This document shows positions 2 through 19,288 of a stretch of 24,406 nucleotides of DNA, in pieces. The notes under the pieces were generated by a model. The model had not been told where the DNA came from. It saw nothing but the letters and a program-made list of their open reading frames with translations, and did no database searches. The DNA is from a virus. The position numbers were made by a program, and so were the translations under genes. The DNA lies in IMG/VR virus record IMGVR_UViG_3300033153_012907; one strand, 5' to 3'. Positions within the stretch are counted from its first letter, which is position 1. The number at the start of each line of letters is the position of its first letter.

Positions 2-760
2 TTAAAATTAGGATTAATAAATATTGATTTGATGTTAATTAATACACAGAACAATAGGTATTCTACAACAGGCACACATAGGTTTTCTAAATGTTGTAAG
101 GCAAGAGTAAAGAATAAGATGTATTGTAGTGATTGTGGAAAGGATATTTTAAATAGTGATTTATTAAAAGGATTTGATGAAGATAACATTTTATCTGAAA
201 GTCAAAGTGAAAAATTAAAAACTTTTTTAGATAATGGTGTTATTGAAGTTATTTCTATCAAAGATATAACTGAAACAACAACATACGACATATTACCTTA
301 TATACAAAAAACACAAATAATATTTCCAAGCATAAGCAAAGGATATAAAAAATCTAATATGAGAAGTTATTATAGTTTTACAAATGCTTTAAAAAAAGAG
401 AATAAATATATTATAGGAAAATTAGTTAATAGGGGGTTAGAGCATTTAGTTGTTATTATGCCCTATAAAAAAGATATGCTTATGTTTTTTCTTCCTTTTA
501 ATCATTATCAAAACACAGATGAAATTGATAGAATTAAAGAGGGTGTTAAGAATACTATTAGAATAGATAAGGTTGATAATTTATATGGGTTTGAAAAAGA
601 AGCGAAAAAGTTTATAAAAGGATTTGAAAGCAAGATTGATGTTTGTGAGATTAAAGAAGAAAAATTAAAATTAATTAATGAATTTAAAAATATGGGAGAA
701 GTAGAAATTAGCATAGATAAAGTTGAAGTTGAAGAAAATCCTTTTTTAGAGGTTAATTAA
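2..760 (+). CDS. ku: Ku-like DNA end-binding protein (prokaryotic Ku core), 5' partial
   Basis: The frame is open to the window edge (LKLGLINIDLMLI, matching Ku ISFGLVNIPVKLY). It has KARVKNKMYCSDCGKDILNSDLLKGF (Ku RIRYKRVC..CG.EV...DIVKGY) and YYSFTNALKKENKYIIGKLVNRGLEHLVVIMP (Ku YALL.EAL......IAKVV.RGREHLAALRP). The real start lies upstream of the window. Confidence 0.85.
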   Translation, partial: LKLGLINIDLMLINTQNNRYSTTGTHRFSKCCKARVKNKMYCSDCGKDILNSDLLKGFDEDNILSESQSEKLKTFLDNGVIEVISIKDITETTTYDILPYIQKTQIIFPSISKGYKKSNMRSYYSFTNALKKENKYIIGKLVNRGLEHLVVIMPYKKDMLMFFLPFNHYQNTDEIDRIKEGVKNTIRIDKVDNLYGFEKEAKKFIKGFESKIDVCEIKEEKLKLINEFKNMGEVEISIDKVEVEENPFLEVN

Positions 761-6337: not shown

Positions 6338-6553
6338 ATGAGAAATCTAACAAAAACTGAAAGTTTGGTTTTGTATAGAAAATATATTAGTAGTGGTTTA
6401 AACCCCTTTGAAGCTAGTAAAAAACTTGAAAGAAGAAAAGAATATTTAAGAAGATTACAATTTAAATTAAGAAAGAAAGGGAAGTCAGATAAAGATATTG
6501 AAAAGGTTTGGAAAATGGCTTGGGAAAAAATTTGTCAAGAAGATGAAATTTAA
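6338..6553 (+). CDS. basic hypothetical protein
   Basis: ORF track; AAAATG start. Confidence 0.6.
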   Translation: MRNLTKTESLVLYRKYISSGLNPFEASKKLERRKEYLRRLQFKLRKKGKSDKDIEKVWKMAWEKICQEDEI

Positions 6554-6869
6554 AACAATTTTTTGGATAATTTTTATAGCAGGTATGTTAGATTTATGTT
6601 CTACAATTATTGGTATTGAAATGGGGGTTTTATATGAAGCAAACCCTGTTGGAAAATTTATTTTATCATTAGGGTATGATTGGGCTTTTATAATCACCTC
6701 TTTTGTTTTTGTTTTTGTTTCTCTTGTTATTTTTACGATGGGAAAAGTTGTTGAAAAACCCTATCCTAAATTAAAGGGTTTTTCTCAATTAATTCTTATA
6801 TTAGTAATGATTATACCAAGAATATATTTCTCTTCAAAAGCAGTTTATTGGATAATTGGTGGGTGGTAA
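6543..6869 (+). CDS. DUF5658-like multi-TM membrane protein
   Basis: D-x2-ST-x2-G-x3-G-x2-EANP motif (MLDLCSTIIGIEMGVLYEANP) plus three hydrophobic helices. Start moved to the ATG at 6543. Confidence 0.7.
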   Translation: MKFKTIFWIIFIAGMLDLCSTIIGIEMGVLYEANPVGKFILSLGYDWAFIITSFVFVFVSLVIFTMGKVVEKPYPKLKGFSQLILILVMIIPRIYFSSKAVYWIIGGW

Positions 6870-8648: not shown

Positions 8649-9170
8649 ATGACATACTCCCAAATGGAAAAACAAAAAACACAACAAGATATAGAATTTA
8701 CTTATTTATTACAACCACCAAAGAAATGGACTTTTGAACAACCAAAATTAAGAAAATGGATTGAAGAACATTGTAAGGGAAAAGTATTAAATTTATTTGC
8801 AGGGAAAACTAAACTTAATGTTGATGAATATAGGATTGATAGCAGTAATGAATTCCGTCCAGACCATTTAGGAGATGCTTTAGTTGATACAATTATTTTA
8901 GACCCTCCATATTCATTAAGAAAATCTTATGAAAAATATAAGGGGCATTATATTGGTTCAAGTTGGACACAAATCAGAAGAGCAGTTCCAAGAGTTTGTA
9001 ATAAAGATGCGATAGTAATTTCATTAGGTTATAATTCACAAGGTATGAGCAGAACATTAGGATTTGAGAAAATAGCAATTCTTTTAATTTGTCATAATGG
9101 AGACCATAATGATACAATAGTAACTTTAGAAAAACTAAAAAAGGAGGTTCGCAATTCCTCCCAACCCTAA
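8649..9170 (+). CDS. orphan DNA N6-adenine methyltransferase-like protein
   Basis: VLNLFAG SAM-binding motif; IILDPPY catalytic motif. The segment between GDAL and DTIILDPPY looks short. The C-terminus KEVRNSSQP* is supplied by a repeat. Confidence 0.8.
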   Translation: MTYSQMEKQKTQQDIEFTYLLQPPKKWTFEQPKLRKWIEEHCKGKVLNLFAGKTKLNVDEYRIDSSNEFRPDHLGDALVDTIILDPPYSLRKSYEKYKGHYIGSSWTQIRRAVPRVCNKDAIVISLGYNSQGMSRTLGFEKIAILLICHNGDHNDTIVTLEKLKKEVRNSSQP

Positions 9171-9185
9171 AGGGGAGGATATCTT
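9140..9185. repeat. palindromic repeat copy 1 (IS200/IS605-end-like)
   Basis: AAAGGAGGTTCGCAATTCCTCCCAA (9140-9164) is identical to 9807-9831. TCCTCCC (9156-9162) pairs with GGGAGGA (9173-9179). Confidence 0.75.
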
Positions 9186-9192
9186 AAAGAAA

Positions 9193-9837
9193 ATGGCAAA
9201 GAAACAAAAAACATTAACAGGAACTTCATTAGTTGGAGATTCAGTGAACAGGGAAAGAGTTAAAGAAGATTATTATGCAACCCCAAAAGAAGCAACAGAA
9301 TCATTATTAAATACCCTTGATTTATCAGAGTGCGAATCTTTTTATGAACCTGCTTGTGGTGAAGGGCATATCTCAAAAGTATTAAAAAAGTTTTATCCCA
9401 ATGCAGATATTTATTCAACAGATTTAATTGATAGAGGATTTGGTGTTGGAAATATTGATTTTTTAAAATTAGATAATTATACAAGAAAGTTTGATTGTAT
9501 AATTACAAATCCTCCATTTAAGTTATCGCAAGAGTTTATAGAGAAAGGATTAAAACTTTCAAATAAGTATGTGATTATGTTTGCTAAAATACAACTTTTA
9601 GAAGGAGTAGCAAGGAGAAAACTATTTGATAAATATACTCCAAAATATATTTATGTTTTTACAGAGAGAGTTAATCCTTTAAGAAATGGAAGTCCTGTTG
9701 ATGAGAATGGAAAAAAGTGGGCTTCTACTATGTGCTTTGCTTGGTTTGTATGGGAGATTGGATTTTCAGGGGAACCAATTATTAGATGGTTAAACTTAAC
9801 TAAACTAAAGGAGGTTCGCAATTCCTCCCAAGCTTAA
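9193..9837 (+). CDS. orphan DNA N6-adenine methyltransferase (phage NPPF family)
   Basis: DYYATP; FYEPACGEGHIS; IITNPPF; LLEGVARRKLF; CFAWFVWE. The C-terminus KEVRNSSQA* is supplied by a repeat. Confidence 0.9.
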   Translation: MAKKQKTLTGTSLVGDSVNRERVKEDYYATPKEATESLLNTLDLSECESFYEPACGEGHISKVLKKFYPNADIYSTDLIDRGFGVGNIDFLKLDNYTRKFDCIITNPPFKLSQEFIEKGLKLSNKYVIMFAKIQLLEGVARRKLFDKYTPKYIYVFTERVNPLRNGSPVDENGKKWASTMCFAWFVWEIGFSGEPIIRWLNLTKLKEVRNSSQA

Positions 9838-9853
9838 AAGGATTGGATATCCT
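9807..9853. repeat. palindromic repeat copy 2 (IS200/IS605-end-like)
   Basis: 25-bp identity with 9140-9164, then a diverged hairpin ending GGATATCCTT. Confidence 0.75.
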
Positions 9854-9993
9854 TATTACATTTATATGAAAAAACTAATCCAGTTAATTTAAAATGAAAA
9901 ATCTACAAAAAAATAATGGTAAAAAGAAATCAGATAACAAATTGGACAAAAAATTAAATTTCGGGAGGTTAACTTCCGAGCGAGGACACAGAA

Positions 9994-10194
9994 ATGAATG
10001 CTGTAATACTTAGAGAACTCTGGTCAAGGTCAGGGTCATTATCAGGGTCAGGGTCATGGTCAGGGTCATGGTCATGGTCATGGTCAGGGTCATGGTCATT
10101 GTCAGGGTCAGGGTCATTATCAGGGTCAGGGTCATGGTCAGGGTCATGGTCATGGTCAAGGTCATGGTCAAGGTCAAGGTCAAGGTCATGGTAA
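9994..10194 (+). CDS. (Ser-X)n peptide copy 1, [10 protein letters not shown] leader, X = W/G/R/L
   Basis: ATG with GAGG upstream; non-repetitive 10-aa leader identical to copy 3; all Ser encoded by TCA. Confidence 0.6.
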
Positions 10195-10221
10195 AATTTA
10201 ATTAAATTTCGGGAGGTTAAA

Positions 10222-10446
10222 ATGAAGAAGGATTTAAACAAATTAAGTTTTCAAGAACTTAAAAAACAAATAGAAGAACTTGATAAAAAGAAAGAATCAG
10301 TTGGTAAAATTCAGGTTAAAGAAAGTCCTTTAGTAATCGGAGAAAATTACTTGATAAGAACTGTAACTATGATTTACACTGGGAAATTAGTAAGAGTGTT
10401 TGATAAAGAACTTGTATTTGTAAGTGCTTCTTGGATTCCAGCTTAG
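10222..10446 (+). pseudogene. 3'-truncated Sm/Hfq-like (SH3-type barrel) protein
   Basis: Strong [43 protein letters not shown] follows the Sm1 pattern (G..V.I.......Y.GKL..fD..LV...A). It breaks at 10441, where it joins the repeat-peptide leader and stops at once. Confidence 0.6.
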
Positions 10447-10627
10447 AGAACTCTGGTCAAGGTCAAGGTCATGGTCATGGTCATGGTCAAGGTCATGGTC
10501 AGGGTCATTGTCAAGGTCATGGTCAGGGTCATGGTCATGGTCAGGGTCATGGTCAGGGTCAGGGTCATTGTCAAGGTCATGGTCAGGGTCATGGTCATGG
10601 TCAGGGTCAGGGTCAAGGTCATGGTAA
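10424..10627 (+). CDS. (Ser-X)n peptide copy 2, ATG leader lost, in-frame GTG upstream
   Basis: LRELW plus 28 Ser-X pairs; could only start at the GTG at 10424. Confidence 0.35.
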
Positions 10628-10674
10628 AATTTAATTAAATTTCGGGAGGTTAACTTCCGAGCGAGGACACAGAA

Positions 10675-10863
10675 ATGAATGCTGTAATACTTAGAGAACT
10701 CTGGTTAAGGTCAGGGTCATGGTCATGGTCAAGGTCATGGTCAGGGTCATTGTCATGGTCATGGTCAGGGTCATGGTCATGGTCAGGGTCATGGTCAGGG
10801 TCAAGGTCAGGGTCAAGGTCATGGTCAGGGTCATGGTCATGGTCAGGGTCAGGGTCATGGTAA
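10675..10863 (+). CDS. (Ser-X)n peptide copy 3
   Basis: Same leader and upstream sequence as copy 1; 26 units in a different order. Confidence 0.6.
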
Positions 10864-11057
10864 ATTATTTTCACCATAAATTTGAAAAATGATACCAAAA
10901 AGATGTAAGAGATGTAACAAGCTTGTGCATTAAAAGTTTATTATGAAAATCAGAGAAAAGAACGACAAAAAAAATCAAAACCTAACACAACAAAATCAAT
11001 TAATGTGTGATGAAGAGATAGAAGAGATGGAAAATTTAGTAAAAAAAAGTTTGGAAA

Positions 11058-11171
11058 ATGAGAATAAAGAAAAAAACAAAACCCTGCCCTGTTTGTAAAT
11101 CTACAAGAACGATAGTTACAAAAGAAGGTATGAGATGTAAAAGGTGTGGTTATTTTAATAAAAGATTTTAA
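11058..11171 (+). CDS. zinc-ribbon microprotein, 37 aa
   Basis: MRIKKKTKPCPVCKS...GMRCKRCGY contains CxxC...CxxC. Confidence 0.7.
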   Translation: MRIKKKTKPCPVCKSTRTIVTKEGMRCKRCGYFNKRF

Positions 11172-11185
11172 TAAAAGATGATAAA

Positions 11186-11317
11186 AAGGGTTTTGATTGT
11201 AGGGTTTTCGCTTAATTAAATTATTTGATGAGATATTCATTTATCCAACCTCACCGAAAGGATTATATAAAACCCTTTGAAATCCAATTTTGTTTGGATG
11301 ATGTAATCAAAACACTT
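11186..11317 (+). ncRNA. candidate structured RNA or leader (multi-stem)
   Basis: P1: 11186-11200 with 11303-11317 (14 of 15 pairs, two G-U). P2: AGGGTTTT (11201-11208) with AAAACCCT (11269-11276). Hairpin ATCCAA/TTGGAT (11282-11299). Confidence 0.4.
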
Positions 11318-11342
11318 AAAAATCATAAAAAAACTATAAAAA

Positions 11343-11618
11343 ATGAAGAAGCCAACAACAATAGCAATATCTAAAGAATTTTTAATTGAATTAAATCAAT
11401 TAAAAAAATTACATAATTTTTCAAATAAAGAAAATCTTATTAAATGTTTTAAAAGAGCTTGGGAAGAAAATATAAAATTAAAGAGGTTGAAAGAACTTAG
11501 AAACTATACGGGGCAAGATATTAATAAAGCAGAAGATTTTTCTGAGAAACTTAATAAAATATTAAATCAAAATCAAACAATCGCAAAGGCTATTTTAAAG
11601 CATGCATTGTTACCTTAG
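11343..11618 (+). CDS. ribbon-helix-helix/CopG-like DNA-binding protein with coiled-coil tail
   Basis: N-terminal TTIAISKEFLIELNQLKK....SNKENLI matches the RHH beta-alpha-alpha pattern. Confidence 0.65.
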   Translation: MKKPTTIAISKEFLIELNQLKKLHNFSNKENLIKCFKRAWEENIKLKRLKELRNYTGQDINKAEDFSEKLNKILNQNQTIAKAILKHALLP

Positions 11619-11723
11619 AGGGTGCATTTTATTGCCTGATGTTTTCTTATGAAATTATAAAATATTTCATAGCCCTTCATAATTGTGTTTGCAGAATCAA
11701 TATACCAATCGTTTTTGGCGTAC

Positions 11724-11790
11724 GAAACATTTAAATAAATAAAATACATAATATATATGTATTTTATGTGATACATAGATTACATAAAAT
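11724..11790 (+). promoter_or_regulatory. BRE+TATA promoter with two overlapping operator-like palindromes
   Basis: GAAACA-TTTAAATA (11724-11737). TAAAATACAT-N7-ATGTATTTTA (11740-11766). ATTTTATGT-N12-ACATAAAAT (11761-11790). Confidence 0.7.
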
Positions 11791-11822
11791 TTAAAAGGTA
11801 GGAAAACTTAAAGAAAATTCTT

Positions 11823-11959
11823 ATGGATTTTTATGAAGAAAATAAATCACAATTTGAAAAATTACCAATATTCTAAAAAAAGATTATGGCATATTAAGAA
11901 GTCCACCAATAATAAAAATTTATTTAGAAGAATTAGTTAAAGAGTTAATCCCAGAATAA
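11823..11959 (+). pseudogene. small ORF with an apparent 1-nt loss in an A5 run
   Basis: Adding one A at 11857-11861 gives MDFYEENKSQFEKITNILKKDYGILRSPPIIKIYLEELVKELIPE*, whose stop lies 2 nt before the next ATG. Confidence 0.5.
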
Positions 11960-11961
11960 AA

Positions 11962-12092
11962 ATGGCAAAAAAATATGGTAAGAAAACTACACAAACCCCC
12001 ACAAGAAGAAGAATAACATTCAAAGCAAGAACTCCAAGTGGGAGAAAAAAACTGTTACTTTTTTAGTTAGGAAAAAAAGAAGGAAAAAATAA
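11962..12092 (+). CDS. very basic microprotein (needs -1 shift at A7 run 12045-12051)
   Basis: MAKKYGKKTTQTPTRRRITFKARTPSGRKK, then after a -1 shift TVTFLVRKKRRKK*. Without the shift it ends ...RKKLLLF* at 12066. Confidence 0.55.
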
Positions 12093-12115
12093 ATTTTTTC
12101 ACTAAATTTTAAAGC

Positions 12116-12129
12116 AAAACATTTAAATA
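12116..12129 (+). promoter_or_regulatory. archaeal BRE+TATA promoter, leaderless
   Basis: CAAAACA-TTTAAATA; the TATA box ends 21 nt before the ATG at 12151. Confidence 0.75.
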
Positions 12130-12150
12130 TAGGTATTACTACAATACAAC

Positions 12151-12285
12151 ATGCCCTCACAAACAATTTATATTAAAAAAGAATTCTGGGATAAAGTTAA
12201 GGAAAAACCAAGTGAAATAGTCAATAAAGCATTAAAGTTTTATTTTAAAAGTTTGAAAGGAGGTAAAAATGAAAAGAAGAAATAA
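12151..12285 (+). CDS. RHH-like microprotein, 44 aa
   Basis: MPSQTIYIKKEFWDKVKEKPSEIVNKALKFYFK: beta-strand then helix, with the SEIVNKAL second helix. Confidence 0.7.
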   Translation: MPSQTIYIKKEFWDKVKEKPSEIVNKALKFYFKSLKGGKNEKKK

Positions 12286-13018
12286 AAAATTGCTATCTGG
12301 GATGGTTTTACCACTTATTGTTGCTGTGGTTTTAGTAAGTGCTTTTGTTTTAGTATCTTATGGTTTTGTTGAACAAGAAATTGAAGTAAAAACTCCAATT
12401 GAAGTTAGTCAAGAATCAGAAGACACAATAACTACTTGGCTTGGAGAAGAAACACAAGTTAAAGGAAGTCCAATAACAATAGATAATGTAGTTCCTTTAG
12501 AAGATGATTTTAGTAAAGATATTGAAGTTAGAATAAGTAATGACAATGAAGAAGAAGGAATTTCTGTTGTTTATTTAGCAAAATTAGAATTGTATTCTAA
12601 AAATACTGAAACTTGGGAAGAAGTTGGAGACCCAAAAGAAATCCTTTATACAGTAATAGGAGAAGAATTTATCGTAGAAAATGATAATGAAGGATTAATG
12701 GTAATAAATTATATTGAACCATCAGACCCATACACTGGTGCATTTAGGTTACCAGAAGATATCACAACAAGTTTTGTTGATGAAAAACTTTGGTTGGTTC
12801 CAGAAGATTCTGATTTAGATGATGATAATGCATTAGATAGTTGGACACCTGCAGAATACAAGTTTGAACATGAGTTAGTCAGTTATACAAAAGGAGACAC
12901 AGGAGTAATCATAATTCCTGAAGGTTCATCAATTACAATAATTCCATTATATATTGTTGAAGTTGAAGAAGCAATTGAAGATTTAACTATAACCACAACA
13001 GTTAACAATATAGAATAA
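12269..13018 (+). CDS. secreted/anchored acidic beta-rich protein, possibly TasA/SipW-cognate-like
   Basis: SD GGAGGT; basic-then-hydrophobic signal. KLWLVP..SD.......W.P.EY.FE..LVSY recalls TasA-like proteins of archaea/CPR (from memory, unverified). Confidence 0.6.
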   Translation: MKRRNKKLLSGMVLPLIVAVVLVSAFVLVSYGFVEQEIEVKTPIEVSQESEDTITTWLGEETQVKGSPITIDNVVPLEDDFSKDIEVRISNDNEEEGISVVYLAKLELYSKNTETWEEVGDPKEILYTVIGEEFIVENDNEGLMVINYIEPSDPYTGAFRLPEDITTSFVDEKLWLVPEDSDLDDDNALDSWTPAEYKFEHELVSYTKGDTGVIIIPEGSSITIIPLYIVEVEEAIEDLTITTTVNNIE

Positions 13019-13032
13019 ACCAAATATCTTAA

Positions 13033-13053
13033 TTTTTTTTATTTTTTTTATTT
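13033..13053 (+). terminator. archaeal oligo-T terminator
   Basis: T8-A-T8 tract starting 15 nt after the stop at 13018. Confidence 0.6.
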
Positions 13054-13088
13054 AGAGAAAAAAAAGGAAATTATATTAAATATAAGAA

Positions 13089-13631
13089 ATGGATAAAATT
13101 AAGATAGGATTAATATTTGGATATATTGGAATTTTAGTTTTACTTAATTCTATTTTTGCAGAAACAATTTATGCTGGAAAATGTAATTCAATAGAGTTCC
13201 CAAATACAGACCCTGTGAAGTTTTTTGTAGAAGGAAATTCAAGTAATATGGAGGGGTTTACATTTAATAAAATAGGAACAAATATAACTTATTGTTTCCA
13301 TATATTGTATAAACCGGATAATTTCACAATAACTTTCTACAATTATCAATCTGTAACTACAAATGGAGGCTCTTCATTAAGTGGGGGAGGTATTTGTAGA
13401 TATAATAAAAATTTTAACTGGAATTGTTCTGAATGGGGTGGGTGTTCTAATGGAACAAAAGTGAGAATTTGTAAGGCTTATAATAACTGCCACACTACTT
13501 ATGGAAAACCAAACGAGACATTAAATTGTTCAGTTGTTCAGAACACCACAGAACCAATTATTTTAGTGCCTGAAGAAAAGTTAAGTTTATTTAGAAGAAT
13601 AATTAACTTCTTAAAAAGATATTTTAGATAG
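13089..13631 (+). CDS. surface glycoprotein with thrombospondin-like Cys-rich module
   Basis: Signal peptide. WNCSEWGGCSNGTKVRICKAYNNC...KPNETLNC is a TSP1-like motif of the kind common in DPANN surface proteins. Eight N-x-S/T sequons. Confidence 0.75.
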   Translation: MDKIKIGLIFGYIGILVLLNSIFAETIYAGKCNSIEFPNTDPVKFFVEGNSSNMEGFTFNKIGTNITYCFHILYKPDNFTITFYNYQSVTTNGGSSLSGGGICRYNKNFNWNCSEWGGCSNGTKVRICKAYNNCHTTYGKPNETLNCSVVQNTTEPIILVPEEKLSLFRRIINFLKRYFR

Positions 13632-13644
13632 AAACCTTTATAAA
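13631..13644 (+). promoter_or_regulatory. archaeal BRE+TATA promoter, leaderless
   Basis: GAAACC-TTTATAAA; the TATA box ends 23 nt before the ATG at 13668. Confidence 0.75.
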
Positions 13645-13667
13645 CTATATTCTATATAATATAGTAA

Positions 13668-13970
13668 ATGGTAATAACAACTTTAATAGGAAGGACAGAG
13701 TGGATAGAAAAAAATAAAAATAATTTGTTTGATGCCCTTACCCCTTCTATTAAATACCTCCTTCTAGTTTTAAATAAGAATAAGAATTTTAACAATTTAA
13801 ATAAGAAAGCTCGTATTTTAAAAATTTCTTATTCTTTTCTTAATAGTCAAATGAGATTATTAGTGGATTTAGGATTAGTAATAAAAGAGATAAGGGGGAG
13901 GACTAGCTATTACATGGTAACAAAAAAAGGAGAAAATTTTTGTGAGGAAATTTTTCATAAACTAAAGTAA
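13668..13970 (+). CDS. archaeal winged-helix regulator (MarR/ArsR-like)
   Basis: ISYSFLNSQMRLLVDLGLVIKEIRGRTSYYMVTKKG: recognition helix, wing and the Y..T.KG motif. Confidence 0.8.
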   Translation: MVITTLIGRTEWIEKNKNNLFDALTPSIKYLLLVLNKNKNFNNLNKKARILKISYSFLNSQMRLLVDLGLVIKEIRGRTSYYMVTKKGENFCEEIFHKLK

Positions 13971-15771: not shown

Positions 15772-16145
15772 AATTTTTAATTTTTTTATTTATTTTTCTT
15801 TGTCTTCCTTTAGTAATAGCGGGAAGTGTACCACAGGCTTCTGTTGAATATTACTTAAATCAAACTGAGTTACCAATTTGCGAAGATGAACTAGAAACCT
15901 GTGTTAATGAATATAATAATCTCTTAGAAGATTTTAAAGACGGAAATAATTGTAAGGGGCTTTCTCAGATGTTAAAAAGTATGAATGAATTACTTGGAGA
16001 AGAAAGAGATGAATGTTTAAAAGAGATAGGCGCTCTTGAAGTATATAAGATAGGTTTTTTTAGTATGGGTGCTTTTTTGTTAATTACCGCGCTCTTTTTA
16101 ATTTACTCATCATTTAAAGATGGAAAAAGAAATACCAAAAAATAA
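15768..16145 (+). CDS. signal peptide, Cys-containing coiled coil and C-terminal TM
   Basis: MKFLIFLFIFLCLPLVIA signal; CEDELETC (Cx6C); TM IGFFSMGAFLLITALFLIY. Confidence 0.75.
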   Translation: MKFLIFLFIFLCLPLVIAGSVPQASVEYYLNQTELPICEDELETCVNEYNNLLEDFKDGNNCKGLSQMLKSMNELLGEERDECLKEIGALEVYKIGFFSMGAFLLITALFLIYSSFKDGKRNTKK

Positions 16146-16416
16146 AGTGTATGTAGGAAAAAAACCATTCCTAAATTATGTTACAGCAGTAAATACTCTA
16201 TTTCAAAAAGGATTTAAAGAAATTATAATTTGTGCAAGAGGAACATTTATCCATAAAGCAGTTGACGTCGCAGAAGTTATTAAAAATAATTTTTCAAAAG
16301 ATGAAGTATTATTAGATGTAAAGACAGGAACAGAATCTTTTAAAGAAAAAGACAAAATAATAAAAGTATCAACAATCGATTTAAAACTAACAAAACACAA
16401 AACAATAAGTTTATAA
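16120..16416 (+). CDS. albA: Alba-family DNA/RNA-binding chromatin protein
   Basis: KVYVGKKPFLNYVTAV...EIIICARGTFIHKAVDVAEVIK...VSTIDLKL matches Alba consensus along its full length. Confidence 0.93.
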   Translation: MEKEIPKNKVYVGKKPFLNYVTAVNTLFQKGFKEIIICARGTFIHKAVDVAEVIKNNFSKDEVLLDVKTGTESFKEKDKIIKVSTIDLKLTKHKTISL

Positions 16417-16449: not shown

Positions 16450-16929
16450 TTGCCTTTCCTAAAATGCCCCATGAAAACAACCATAGTCTCAGAATTACTC
16501 TCCCAAAATAAAATAAAATTTCTAGATGAAAATAACTTACATTTTAGGATTTGTTACCCTTCTAAATTTAAATATGTAAACCAATTTCAACCACCTTTTC
16601 TTATCATAGATACTTTTGCTAAAAAAACAACAAGGCAAAAGGACATTGTAAGGATAAGTCTAAATGATTTAAAAAGAAAAGAGTTGGTATTGACTAGCGT
16701 AAAAGCAACAAAATCTACTAGATGGATTAGTTATCAAAAAAGGATTTATAGGATTGAACCCTTATTTTCTATATCCCCTAACTCAAAGAAACTTCTTACA
16801 GCTCCAGAAGGTCATAAAATCGAGTTTGACAGGGCAAACCAAGCAGTTAGATTAATCGGTAAATATGCAGGATATCCTCATAGGGGAAATGGAGGAAATT
16901 GGGTTCCAATTAAAAATGATAACGCCTGA
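16450..16929 (+). CDS. hypothetical basic protein upstream of the ATPase
   Basis: ORF track; the likely start is the ATG at 16471. Confidence 0.6.
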   Translation: MPFLKCPMKTTIVSELLSQNKIKFLDENNLHFRICYPSKFKYVNQFQPPFLIIDTFAKKTTRQKDIVRISLNDLKRKELVLTSVKATKSTRWISYQKRIYRIEPLFSISPNSKKLLTAPEGHKIEFDRANQAVRLIGKYAGYPHRGNGGNWVPIKNDNA

Positions 16930-19288
16930 AGAATTAAAATGCAGATTATGGGGAATGGGTTTTGCAAATCCAAGAACTAGATACAAGGAGAAAATGATAG
17001 AAGATATTCCAATAATGATAACAGATTCTGGAAAATTATTGTGTGTTCCAAATACAGAGGAAATAAAACATGTCGGAATTGTGGGGATGACTGGTTGTCA
17101 GCCTGCCGGAAGCAAGGTTTTAATGGCAGATGGTTCTTGGAAAAATATAGAAAAAATAAAGAAGGGGGATTTGGTAATTTCCCCCCAGAAGGAGGGGGGT
17201 AATATTTTTGCTAAGGTCAAATCTACTACCAAATGGTTCTCAAATGAAAATTATGAGATAAAAGAACAAAATAGAAACAAGAGAAGTCTATATAGGTGCT
17301 CCCATAATCATATAATCCCTTTTTATTTTAGGTCTAAAAAAAGTTCAAAAGATGCCTCATGGAAAATAAGACAGGAAACAGCATCACATTTCAATAAATA
17401 TGATGAATTAGCAAACTCTAGGATTGGTTTTTCTTCTTTTTTAATAGAAAAATTTAAAGGAAGAAAAAATTGTGAGATTGAAGCTTATACTTTAGGGGTT
17501 TTTTTAGGGGATGGATGTTCTATTTATAAGGAATATAAAAGACAAAAATATAAGGCACTTTCAATAACTTCTATGAATGAAGAAATTATAGATGAGGTAT
17601 CTAAATTTTATCCAATAATGAGTATAAGGAACAAAGAAAAGAGTAAGGCAAAACAGTATAATTTTTCAGTTAAGGGAGAACTTCAGAAACAAATAGAAAA
17701 ATATGGTCTTAAAGGGAAAAAAAGTGGAGATAAATTTATCCCAAAAGAAGCATTATTATCAGATTCAGAATATAGAAAAAAACTTCTTGCAGGATTAATA
17801 GATACAGATGGCACCATTAAAGATGGAACAAGTTATAACTTAGTTACAATATCTAAGAGTTTGGCAGAAGACATAAAATTTTTGATTTATTCTCTTGGTG
17901 GCAGATGTTCAATTAAAAAATATAAATCAAGTATAAAATCATCAAATTTTATTGGTGAACGTTATATTATAAGTTTTTATTTGCATAAATTAGAACTACC
18001 ATTAAAATTAAAATATAAAATAAGAAATAAAAAATTTTCTTATTTATCTTCTAATAGATTAGCGATTTCTGTAAAAAAATCAGAACCTGGGATGGTTTAT
18101 GGATTCCAAATAAACAGCCCCTCTAAATGGTATGTAACAGATAATTGGATGGCAACCCACAACTCCTGTAAGAGCATTTTTCTTAACGCTTTTCTTTCTT
18201 GGGACTATTGGCTTGCAAAAAGGAAATGTCTTGTTTTAAATGATTTTCAAAAAGAAACTTTTGAATGGAGCCTACCAACAGATACTCCAAGTTTTTTTTA
18301 TTCTTTAAAAAAAATAAACGCAAAACCTTGTCCAACACCTCTTGTTTATATCTTTCCTACAACGAAATCTCTCCAAATAGAACCATCTGATAAGAGATTT
18401 CCTTTGATAAAGATGACACTCCCTCTCGAAGAAGTCATAAAGAATGTAGAAAACTATCATAAATTAGACAAGAGCAAGGTTTATCTTGCAAATATAAAAG
18501 AAAAACTAGAAGATTGTAATTCTATTCAGGAGATAAGAGAAGTTTTGGAAGAGGAATTTCCAGAAAGAGAACAAAAGTTAATGAGGTTTAAGTTAATGAA
18601 TATTTTTGAAGATTTATTTGAAAACCATATTTTAAATGTAGCAGTTCCAAACGCCCCTTCTTATTTGGAATACAAAAAAAAAGAGGTTAGATATTATAAT
18701 AAGGTAGTGCAAACAATATTAAGGGCAAACTTAATCCCCTCAATTCAAACCTCTGATTTGAGTAATTATGAATTTTTTTCTGCTTATATGTCTTATATTG
18801 TTAGTTCTTTATATGAAAATCAATATCATGATAGTTATTTTAAAACTCAAACAATATCATTATTTGTAGATGAAATAGATAAATTATGGCTTGGATTTAA
18901 TGGCAATTTAATAAAAAGAGCCCTTAGTTTAATTGGAACAAATGGTAGAATGGCAAGAATAGGATTAAGGTGGGCAACACAACATTATAAAGTTGTTCCT
19001 GTTGGAATAAGGAGTAACACCAAATTCTTGGTTGTTTCAAGACAAAAAGATTCAAAGGAGGTATCAGAGATAAGAAAAGATTTTGATATCCCAAAATGGA
19101 TGGAAAAAGATATTTTAAATTTAAAGTCAGAACCAGAAAAAGGAATTTTTGAAGTTATTGCAGTAACTACAGAAAGATTTATATTATATGATTTAACAAC
19201 AGGAGAAAAAAAATTAAGTTCAGAAGCACAAAAAGGAGAACTGGTATGTCCAATTGCGCGACATCATAGACCAAACACTAAACTATAA
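16916..19288 (+). CDS. FtsK/HerA-superfamily (VirB4/packaging-like) ATPase with intein
   Basis: After splicing, Walker A reads HVGIVGMTG|SCKS. Walker B ISLFVDE. GRMARIGLRWATQ and IRSN motifs are characteristic of FtsK-HerA. Start moved to the AAAATG at 16916; spliced product about 434 aa. Confidence 0.85.
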   Translation: MITPEELKCRLWGMGFANPRTRYKEKMIEDIPIMITDSGKLLCVPNTEEIKHVGIVGMTGCQPAGSKVLMADGSWKNIEKIKKGDLVISPQKEGGNIFAKVKSTTKWFSNENYEIKEQNRNKRSLYRCSHNHIIPFYFRSKKSSKDASWKIRQETASHFNKYDELANSRIGFSSFLIEKFKGRKNCEIEAYTLGVFLGDGCSIYKEYKRQKYKALSITSMNEEIIDEVSKFYPIMSIRNKEKSKAKQYNFSVKGELQKQIEKYGLKGKKSGDKFIPKEALLSDSEYRKKLLAGLIDTDGTIKDGTSYNLVTISKSLAEDIKFLIYSLGGRCSIKKYKSSIKSSNFIGERYIISFYLHKLELPLKLKYKIRNKKFSYLSSNRLAISVKKSEPGMVYGFQINSPSKWYVTDNWMATHNSCKSIFLNAFLSWDYWLAKRKCLVLNDFQKETFEWSLPTDTPSFFYSLKKINAKPCPTPLVYIFPTTKSLQIEPSDKRFPLIKMTLPLEEVIKNVENYHKLDKSKVYLANIKEKLEDCNSIQEIREVLEEEFPEREQKLMRFKLMNIFEDLFENHILNVAVPNAPSYLEYKKKEVRYYNKVVQTILRANLIPSIQTSDLSNYEFFSAYMSYIVSSLYENQYHDSYFKTQTISLFVDEIDKLWLGFNGNLIKRALSLIGTNGRMARIGLRWATQHYKVVPVGIRSNTKFLVVSRQKDSKEVSEIRKDFDIPKWMEKDILNLKSEPEKGIFEVIAVTTERFILYDLTTGEKKLSSEAQKGELVCPIARHHRPNTKL
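17096..18163 (+). mobile_element. intein with LAGLIDADG homing endonuclease, 356 aa
   Basis: Block A CQPAGSKVLMADGSWKNIEKIKKGD; block B SHNHII; LAGLIDADG motifs LGVFLGDG and LAGLIDTDG; block G THN followed by Ser+1. Confidence 0.95.

Follow-up and report, generated by a model that had tools for sequence, protein, structure and literature searches.

The Sm and LSm proteins SmD1, SmD3, SmB and LSm4 carry Arg-Gly tails. Expansion of the GGGGCC hexanucleotide of C9orf72 leads to dipeptide-repeat proteins such as poly-GR and poly-PR, and these Arg polycations bind RNA and proteins multivalently and independently of sequence. The ring protein TRAP binds (G/U)AG triplet repeats in the trp leader RNA. 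In T4-type phages, the early proteins GoF, MotB.1 and Frd.2 have an LSm-like fold that is recognized only by structure prediction, and they are suspected of acting on RNA (PMC12152347).

In this paper we describe a pair of adjacent viral genes that shares features with each of these systems. The first gene encodes a small protein with a predicted Sm fold, and the second encodes a peptide in which serine alternates with one of very few other residues, (Ser-X)n. A search of open-access papers and bioRxiv gave no description of Ser-X peptides or of an Sm-like/(Ser-X)n pair, the nearest being the unrelated T4 LSm-like proteins. The pair is very widespread and apparently undescribed.

Materials and methods

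The window is the whole stretch of DNA analyzed, the 24,406 nucleotides of IMG/VR virus record IMGVR_UViG_3300033153_012907, numbered from its first letter. Loci in IMG/VR and in metagenomes were counted as carrying the pair when an ORF of at least 5 Ser-X units started within 150 nt of the end of an intact Sm-like gene, and only where at least 200 nt of downstream sequence were available.

Results

The window contig has a G+C content of about 26%, and nearly all of its genes lie on the + strand. The closest relatives of its Sm-like gene are found in MAGs of Nanoarchaeota, Woesearchaeota and Heimdallarchaeaceae (DPANN, Asgard), the closest genome hit being in Nanoarchaeota with 76% identity. 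Together with the Alba, Ku-like, DUF63/DUF5658 and intein-bearing ATPase genes (Table 1), the base composition and these relatives point to an archaeal virus or mobile element, and judging from gene content the window is probably archaeal, possibly of DPANN type. An AT-rich stretch upstream of the first unit (9838-9951) holds a TTTATAT element (~9862-9868), which could be a candidate archaeal TATA box for the whole array region; an ORF that overlaps this stretch (9894-10013, 39 aa) is probably spurious.

Table 1. Features of the window and of the three-unit array region.
Feature	Position	Strand	Remarks
Ku-like protein	2-760		
DUF63/DUF5658 membrane protein	6498-6869		
DNA methyltransferase genes	8649-9170, 9193-9837		Upstream of the arrays; a run of small genes lies downstream
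Unit 1, spacer/ribosome-binding region, 21 nt, normally 5' of the Sm-like gene	9952-9972	+	Same 21-mer at 10200-10220 and 10633-10653
Unit 1, remnant of the Sm-like gene end, ~25 nt, RTQK*, stop overlaps peptide ATG	9973-9997	+	4-nt CGAG duplication relative to the intact end in L284
Peptide gene 1, 66 aa, leader + (Ser-X)28, pI 12	9994-10194	+	Core 10024-10191
Unit 2, spacer with GGAGG ribosome-binding site before the Sm-like gene	10200-10221	+	
Truncated Sm-like gene, 73 of 121 codons, then Ala and stop from the fused leader remnant	10222-10446	+	Homologues 121 aa; by the model of a homologue, only the predicted N-terminal helix and strands 1-3 are kept
Deletion junction, 158 nt of L284 (its 223-380) absent	10441-10442	+	Missing: rest of gene, stop, first seven leader codons
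LRELW leader remnant, array 2 (28 units), stop	10442-10627	+	Core 10457-10624; no ATG or ribosome-binding site of its own
Unit 3, spacer 21-mer and gene-end remnant as in unit 1	10633-10678	+	Also in L284 and L285
Peptide gene 3, 62 aa, leader + 26 units	10675-10863	+	Core 10705-10860; 100% identical in L284 and L285
Alba	16120-16416		E 1.7e-16
ATPase or terminase-like gene with Hint/LAGLIDADG intein	16865-19288		

Tandem Repeats Finder places period-6 arrays at 10021-10192 and 10454-10861. Counted in the Ser-X frame these resolve into the three arrays of 28, 28 and 26 units that the original prediction had described, with the motif (NGG-TCA)n. As it had also stated, X is restricted in all three to Trp, Gly, Arg and Leu, encoded by TGG, GGG, AGG, TTG and TTA only. 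Its statement that the Ser codon is always TCA is correct for 81 of the 82 units, the sole exception being one TTA in copy 3. The three peptides are 62-67 aa long with a pI of 12, and two of the arrays form complete small ORFs. The identical LRELW that had been ascribed to all three belongs to a longer leader, which is complete in copies 1 and 3; copy 2 has the LRELW part alone, lacks its own ATG and directly follows the 74-codon Sm-like ORF. Copies 1 and 3 also share a 5' flank that opens with the 21-mer aattaaatttcgggaggttaa and extends through the leader, and in both a short frame ending in RTQK* overlaps the peptide start as ATGA, so that the near-identical flanks and the overlap reported earlier were found again. 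While the flanks are identical except for one base, the arrays differ, and the longest exact runs that they have in common are 29-47 nt.

The same study sampled elsewhere two sister contigs that match the window exactly, L284 over 10466-12817 and L285 over 10502-13966. Arrays 2 and 3 are base-for-base identical in the three assemblies, and therefore these arrays assemble reproducibly and are stable at this scale. The description of the arrays as hypervariable accordingly holds between copies and between viruses, and fails between these samples. L284 preserves what the window has lost. Beyond the residues SASWIP it encodes the remainder of the barrel as far as PRTQK*, whose stop overlaps the start of an intact peptide gene (ATGA) with complete leader and array 2. 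Its 158 additional nucleotides are those whose loss fuses codon 73 of the Sm-like gene to the middle of the leader in the window. Units 1 and 3 are complementary to this: in both, the spacer that normally lies upstream of the Sm-like gene is joined to the last ~25 nt of that gene, with the 4-nt CGAG duplication, leaving a peptide gene with its own ribosome-binding site and no Sm-like gene; the unit 3 junction is present in L284 and L285 as well. The same module can thus be recognized in units 1-3 of the window and, intact, in L284, where the Sm-like gene is followed by a micro-ORF with an MNxAILR-type leader, Ser-[W/G/R] dipeptides, and NGG codons with a single Ser codon.

By these junctions, an ancestral unit multiplied, two copies then lost nearly all of the Sm-like gene to become the peptide-only units 1 and 3, and the middle unit lost 158 nt across the end of the Sm-like gene and the start of the peptide gene. 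The window is thereby left with two peptide genes that are intact and with no complete Sm-like gene. Either the peptides can work alone, or this copy is dying, or the window is a minor variant. Taken jointly with the function proposed in the Discussion, the view that the region is a self-contained viral module of two genes, amplified in tandem and by now partly decayed, is one that we accept and doubt in about equal measure.

L284 also differs from the window farther upstream. Within its first 222 nt, methyltransferase 1 (8770-8884) is fused in frame with the Sm-like gene (10335-10441), which is entered at codon ~38. The join lies at a 7-nt microhomology, CTTTAGT, and removes 1450 nt comprising the rest of methyltransferase 1, methyltransferase 2, unit 1 and the N-terminus of the Sm-like protein. 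Two further contigs, L282 and L283, end at window positions ~8900-8936. We read the join and these ends as several structural variants of the region in the population, in which 8885-10334 looks like a present/absent cassette. In look-ups the truncated 74-aa product and peptide 1 were on no contig other than the window, and no contig was found for P0093 or for the second methyltransferase. Exact-pattern scans of IMG/VR returned nothing for the leader-array junction of the window, its deletion junction or the intact junction of L284.

The same observations could be taken to mean that the three-copy layout and the truncated gene are assembly artefacts of a repeat-rich, polymorphic region whose real genome carries one intact unit. 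The sister contigs break or switch exactly here, many IMG/VR contigs stop inside such arrays, and two of the products occur on this contig only. We nevertheless consider an artefact improbable. Both deletion junctions lie in unique sequence and not in the arrays, so reads that span them must exist; array 2, unit 3 and the downstream genes recur base for base in two other samples; and tandem modules and peptide-only units are common elsewhere (e.g. L155, L180, L190, L132).

The 74-codon ORF of the window has 124 homologues, nearly all of about 121 aa, which align over its full length and then continue for some 47 residues to a conserved end, LPR.QK. An AlphaFold2 model of one homologue, P0009, built from an alignment of 36 sequences, has a mean pLDDT of 90.1. 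In it a long helix at the N-terminus leads into a strongly bent antiparallel beta-barrel of five strands, the architecture of an Sm fold. In a Foldseek search with this model the top PDB matches were all Sm/LSm proteins, at a modest E of ~3e-3. By eye, the family alignment contains a stretch G..IRTVTM..G.L and another that resembles GRG.I.D, which are reminiscent of Sm1 and Sm2. At the level of sequence the family went unrecognized: none of its 36 members matched the LSM or Hfq families of Pfam at E values up to 1, PHROGs had no family for the protein, and a search of the family profile against PDB sequences matched no Sm protein. In the ESM Atlas it met unnamed viral clusters only, with DUF6948 as a weak lead (0.84). 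Since no sequence profile (Pfam LSM, PHROGs, PDB sequences) recognizes the gene, it is by predicted fold only that we place it among the Sm proteins; for the full-length homologue the model supports this fold with high confidence.

The Sm-like gene that had been predicted between copies 1 and 2 is thus supported at the level of predicted fold: a full-length homologue is modeled with the expected fold and finds Sm/LSm structures first, whereas the ORF in the window is truncated and the family lacks a profile signature. The window ORF ends at residue 73-74 of 121, within strand 3 of the model, and without strands 4 and 5 the barrel is incomplete. Cut inside the barrel, it cannot form one and is therefore probably not functional.

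Outside the window the two genes are regularly found together. A (Ser-X)n ORF lies 3' of the Sm-like gene in 52 of 59 non-redundant IMG/VR loci, which were found by protein homology, and in 31 of 47 metagenome loci; among genome hits, from bacterial and archaeal MAGs, a Ser-X run follows within ~450 nt in 44 of 50. The commonest spacing is -4, which is the ATGA overlap, and the range is -4 to +2. The proposed tie between Sm-like homologues and (Ser-X)n ORFs therefore holds, mostly through ATGA, and the proposed ancestral order of Sm-like gene, ATGA and peptide is seen directly in L284. The ribosome-binding site of the peptide gene sits within the final codons of the Sm-like gene, with an obvious Shine-Dalgarno-like tetramer at only 35 of 66 coupled starts. 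In L121, an intact 121-aa gene is followed one base past its stop by MTNPVILRELW and 29 Ser-X units of NGG-TCG. In the family alignment (A1), and for example at 6350-6370 of L121, the codons for the conserved P-R-E-Q-K at the C-terminus of the Sm-like protein are also the place of the AGGAG-like ribosome-binding site of the peptide gene, and part of the conservation of the protein may be due to dual coding. A -1 frameshift fusion of the two genes was rejected, as there is no conserved slippery site and the gaps vary over the range given above.

The pair is common. A relative of the Sm-like gene is encoded by 456 IMG/VR contigs as judged from one subfamily pattern alone, and a pattern of six GGTCAN units is present in more than 120 IMG/VR contigs, of which many have the same type of ORF, with leaders such as MNAAILRTGFDR. 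In GenBank, the uncultured myovirus MW202573 carries both genes, annotated as hypothetical proteins, beside a repressor gene. The MAG labels of the genome hits include, besides Nanoarchaeota, Woesearchaeota, Bathyarchaeota, Saccharibacteria, Planctomycetota, Acidobacteriota, Actinomycetota, Proteobacteria, Bacteroidota and others, and some hits, which lie on contigs of 0.6 to 2.5 Mb, may be in prophages.

When ORFs of at least 50 aa were clustered within 2.5 kb of 80 loci, no gene besides the Sm-like gene was conserved; with no third conserved neighbor, the pair is a self-contained cassette. This bears on the idea that the peptide is the precursor of a ribosomally made, post-translationally modified peptide (RiPP), with a leader and a Ser-rich core. 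A short conserved leader before a variable, Ser-rich core is what such a precursor would have. Cyclodehydratase, dehydratase, radical-SAM enzyme, protease and exporter genes are all absent as conserved neighbors from the 80 loci, however, and the core is 40-80 residues of pure repeat, so that a RiPP precursor is extremely improbable. Below the size limit of the clustering, the window has a zinc-ribbon ORF of 37 aa (CxxC...CxxC, 11058-11171) after the module, and in MW202573 a 'zinc finger domain protein' likewise follows (L201 1897-2238).

Seven other loci (L132, L169, L025, L004, L155, L180 and L190) have two to four consecutive peptide genes or two complete modules in tandem, and amplification of units is a general habit of the module. 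Viral contigs often end in or just after a hexamer array, some at both ends (L122, L134, L143, L147, L151, L172; L002/L063, L040/L058, L034/L036). The arrays may break short-read assemblies or mark the junctions of circular genomes, and because contigs end in them the module counts given above are underestimates.

Of the six reading frames, five run through the arrays of the window without a stop; the window by itself therefore cannot show which frame is used, and comparison between loci is needed. The peptide gene in general consists of a conserved leader of about 12 residues (MNxAILRxG[FYW]D-like) and 20-40 Ser-X dipeptides in which X is Trp, Gly or Arg; the peptides are of low complexity and strongly basic, with a median length of 73 aa and a pI of ~12. 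In ten leaders that end in ILRE[LFGM]W, including that of L121, the invariant Leu is encoded by five different codons, and Ile and Arg also vary synonymously. Arrays differ in their Ser codon (TCA, TCG, TCT or AGC), with essentially one codon per array. Nine arrays use AGC exclusively, which has no base in common with TCN at any position, so that only the Ser-X reading is kept while the other sense frames and the antisense Asp-X frame are destroyed. In most loci the Ser-X frame meets a stop codon where the array ends or near that point, and GenBank already calls one such ORF in MW202573. From these comparative signs we consider it very likely that the two genes form a genuine module and are translated. 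Alternative frames, namely (Asp-X)n or (Thr-X)n on the antisense strand and Gly-His/Gln or Val-X in the sense direction, were rejected because they change or break once the Ser codon is TCG or AGC.

The codons of the arrays follow a pattern of their own. Across 2371 codons, X is NGG in 88.5%, with G as second base in 92% and as third base in 94.5%. Only the first base is free to vary, being G in 33%, T in 28%, C in 21% and A in 17%. Third-base variants of X that leave the amino acid as it is are as rare as second-base variants that replace it. Gly is encoded by GGG in 96% of cases within arrays as against 19% in the adjacent Sm-like genes, and Arg by AGG or CGG in 96% as against 28%. TCC and AGT are almost never used as the array Ser codon. 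Selection on the peptide alone does not predict NGG with a single Ser codon, and hence the array may have an additional role at the level of DNA or RNA. One reading that fits the pattern is that the nucleic acid is selected as well, with GG at every six bases; such a GG-spaced tract could be a candidate site for the Sm-like protein or a G-quadruplex-prone tract. Another reading that fits is a fast turnover of units by slippage together with selection for a mixture of Trp, Gly and Arg, and because Trp has one codon, only NGG units regenerate all three residues by a single change. A pure Ser codon beside a diverse first base of X is hard to obtain from unbiased point mutation.

Carried further, the first of these readings would have the arrays act mainly as RNA or DNA, through GG-spaced sites (for example with the Sm-like protein wrapping its own mRNA) or two-quartet G-quadruplexes, and translation would be incidental or regulatory. 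The near-fixation of G at the second and third bases of X agrees with this, as do the near absence from arrays of GGA/GGT/GGC and AGA/CGN, which dominate in neighboring genes, and the putative RNA-binding protein encoded immediately upstream. Against it, the three-base spacer is always a Ser codon even though TCN and AGC have no common base, the leader is maintained at the amino-acid level through synonymous changes, a stop closes the frame where the array ends in most loci, and no Rfam family matched at gathering score (best E 0.034, 23 bits against 150). A mainly nucleic-acid role is for these reasons decidedly unlikely; the arrays may have a dual role, as peptide and as RNA or DNA.

Discussion

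The most economical guess that we can offer, and a tentative one, is that the module acts through a sequence-independent, composition-driven interaction with nucleic acid. The peptide would be a disordered polycation selected for its composition, in which sticky Trp and Arg residues are spaced by Ser and Gly. Together with the coupled Sm-like protein, which would probably form a ring, it would act early in infection on RNA or another nucleic acid, either by binding it multivalently or by condensation. If only composition matters, the order of units in the array would be free to drift. Under the strict NGG rule, a single change at the first base would be enough to turn any unit into Trp, Gly or Arg. 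Nucleic-acid interaction is the most economical choice because the genes are translationally coupled, the leader is conserved, the array is conserved in composition only, there are no enzyme neighbors, the location is early or accessory, and the module occurs in both domains. Its presence in viruses of bacteria as well as archaea fits best with a common target, either nucleic acid or the virus's own molecules. Complex prediction with the Sm-like protein (alignment A1) and the first 40 residues of the L121 peptide gave a score of 0.00, which we count neither for nor against a complex.

Two other functions can be weighed against nucleic-acid binding. The peptide may be a decoy or inhibitor in counter-defense, a Trp-in-Gly/Ser 'hook' or a mimic of a nuclease or kinase substrate, whose repeats are driven by an arms race and for which the Sm-like protein serves as chaperone. 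The module does lie in early or accessory regions, beside methyltransferases (window, L121) or a repressor (MW202573), many loci have two copies of it or more than one peptide gene, and its arrays differ strongly between paralogues. We find this role unlikely, since array order has no conserved motif and only composition is retained, the same design occurs in viruses of hosts as distant as archaea and CPR bacteria, which argues against a host-specific protein target, and arrays 2 and 3 of the window do not change between three samples. It is highly improbable that the product is a toxic or membrane-active peptide of the kind of the Trp/Arg-rich antimicrobial peptides, which would serve lysis or host shut-off and which the Sm-like protein would restrain as an antitoxin does its toxin. 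Trp and Arg would fall on one face of an extended chain, the pI is 12 and the two genes are tightly coupled in translation, all of which would suit such a peptide; yet it has no signal peptide or hydrophobic segment, half of its residues are Ser, the module lies outside lysis cassettes, and peptide-only units without an adjacent partner gene exist (units 1 and 3 of the window, and multi-peptide loci).

Returning to the preferred interaction with nucleic acid, its fullest form would be a portable ribonucleoprotein or condensate device, in which an Sm-like ring is combined with hexamer-encoded sticker-and-spacer polycations under the NGG scheme of evolvability, in viruses of bacteria and archaea, including those of DPANN and CPR hosts. 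The GG-spaced mRNA may in addition be the binding site of the ring and provide autoregulation. As a complete scheme we think this unlikely.

If the pair is as it appears, it is among the most widespread uncharacterized gene pairs of prokaryotic viruses, spanning many phyla and both domains. It would provide natural, selected, hexanucleotide-encoded dipeptide-repeat proteins outside eukaryotic disease, and a virus-borne protein of predicted Sm fold with a detachable low-complexity partner. The codon pattern, with variation confined to the first base of X and a single Ser codon per array, is a clean puzzle in repeat evolution. To this the window adds a probable archaeal-virus context, structural variants at the population level that show both multiplication and loss of units, and proof that the arrays assemble reproducibly.

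Among described systems, the T4 proteins GoF, MotB.1 and Frd.2 resemble the Sm-like protein in being small phage proteins without an assigned role and with an LSm-like predicted fold, and differ in having no coupled repeat peptide. TRAP offers an analogy for NGG at every six bases, as the gene of a ring protein near RNA with regularly spaced, G-containing triplets; TRAP, however, does not have an Sm fold, and in the viral arrays the spacers are always Ser codons and the array is translated. The dipeptide repeats of C9orf72 are likewise a hexanucleotide array read as a dipeptide repeat. The viral peptide, by contrast, comes from a normal gene that starts at ATG, encodes a conserved leader and is read in one fixed frame; it is selected and widespread in viruses, and consists of Ser, Trp, Gly and Arg. 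With archaeal and eukaryotic Sm/LSm proteins, above all SmD1, SmD3, SmB and LSm4, the pair shares a barrel, here a predicted one, and a basic low-complexity segment of Gly and Arg. Unlike these proteins, the viral protein matches no LSM profile and is modeled with a long helix at the N-terminus and a further helix that separates strand 3 from strand 4. Its low-complexity counterpart is made as a micro-protein of its own, coupled in translation, which has a conserved leader, a strict alternation of Ser and much Trp.
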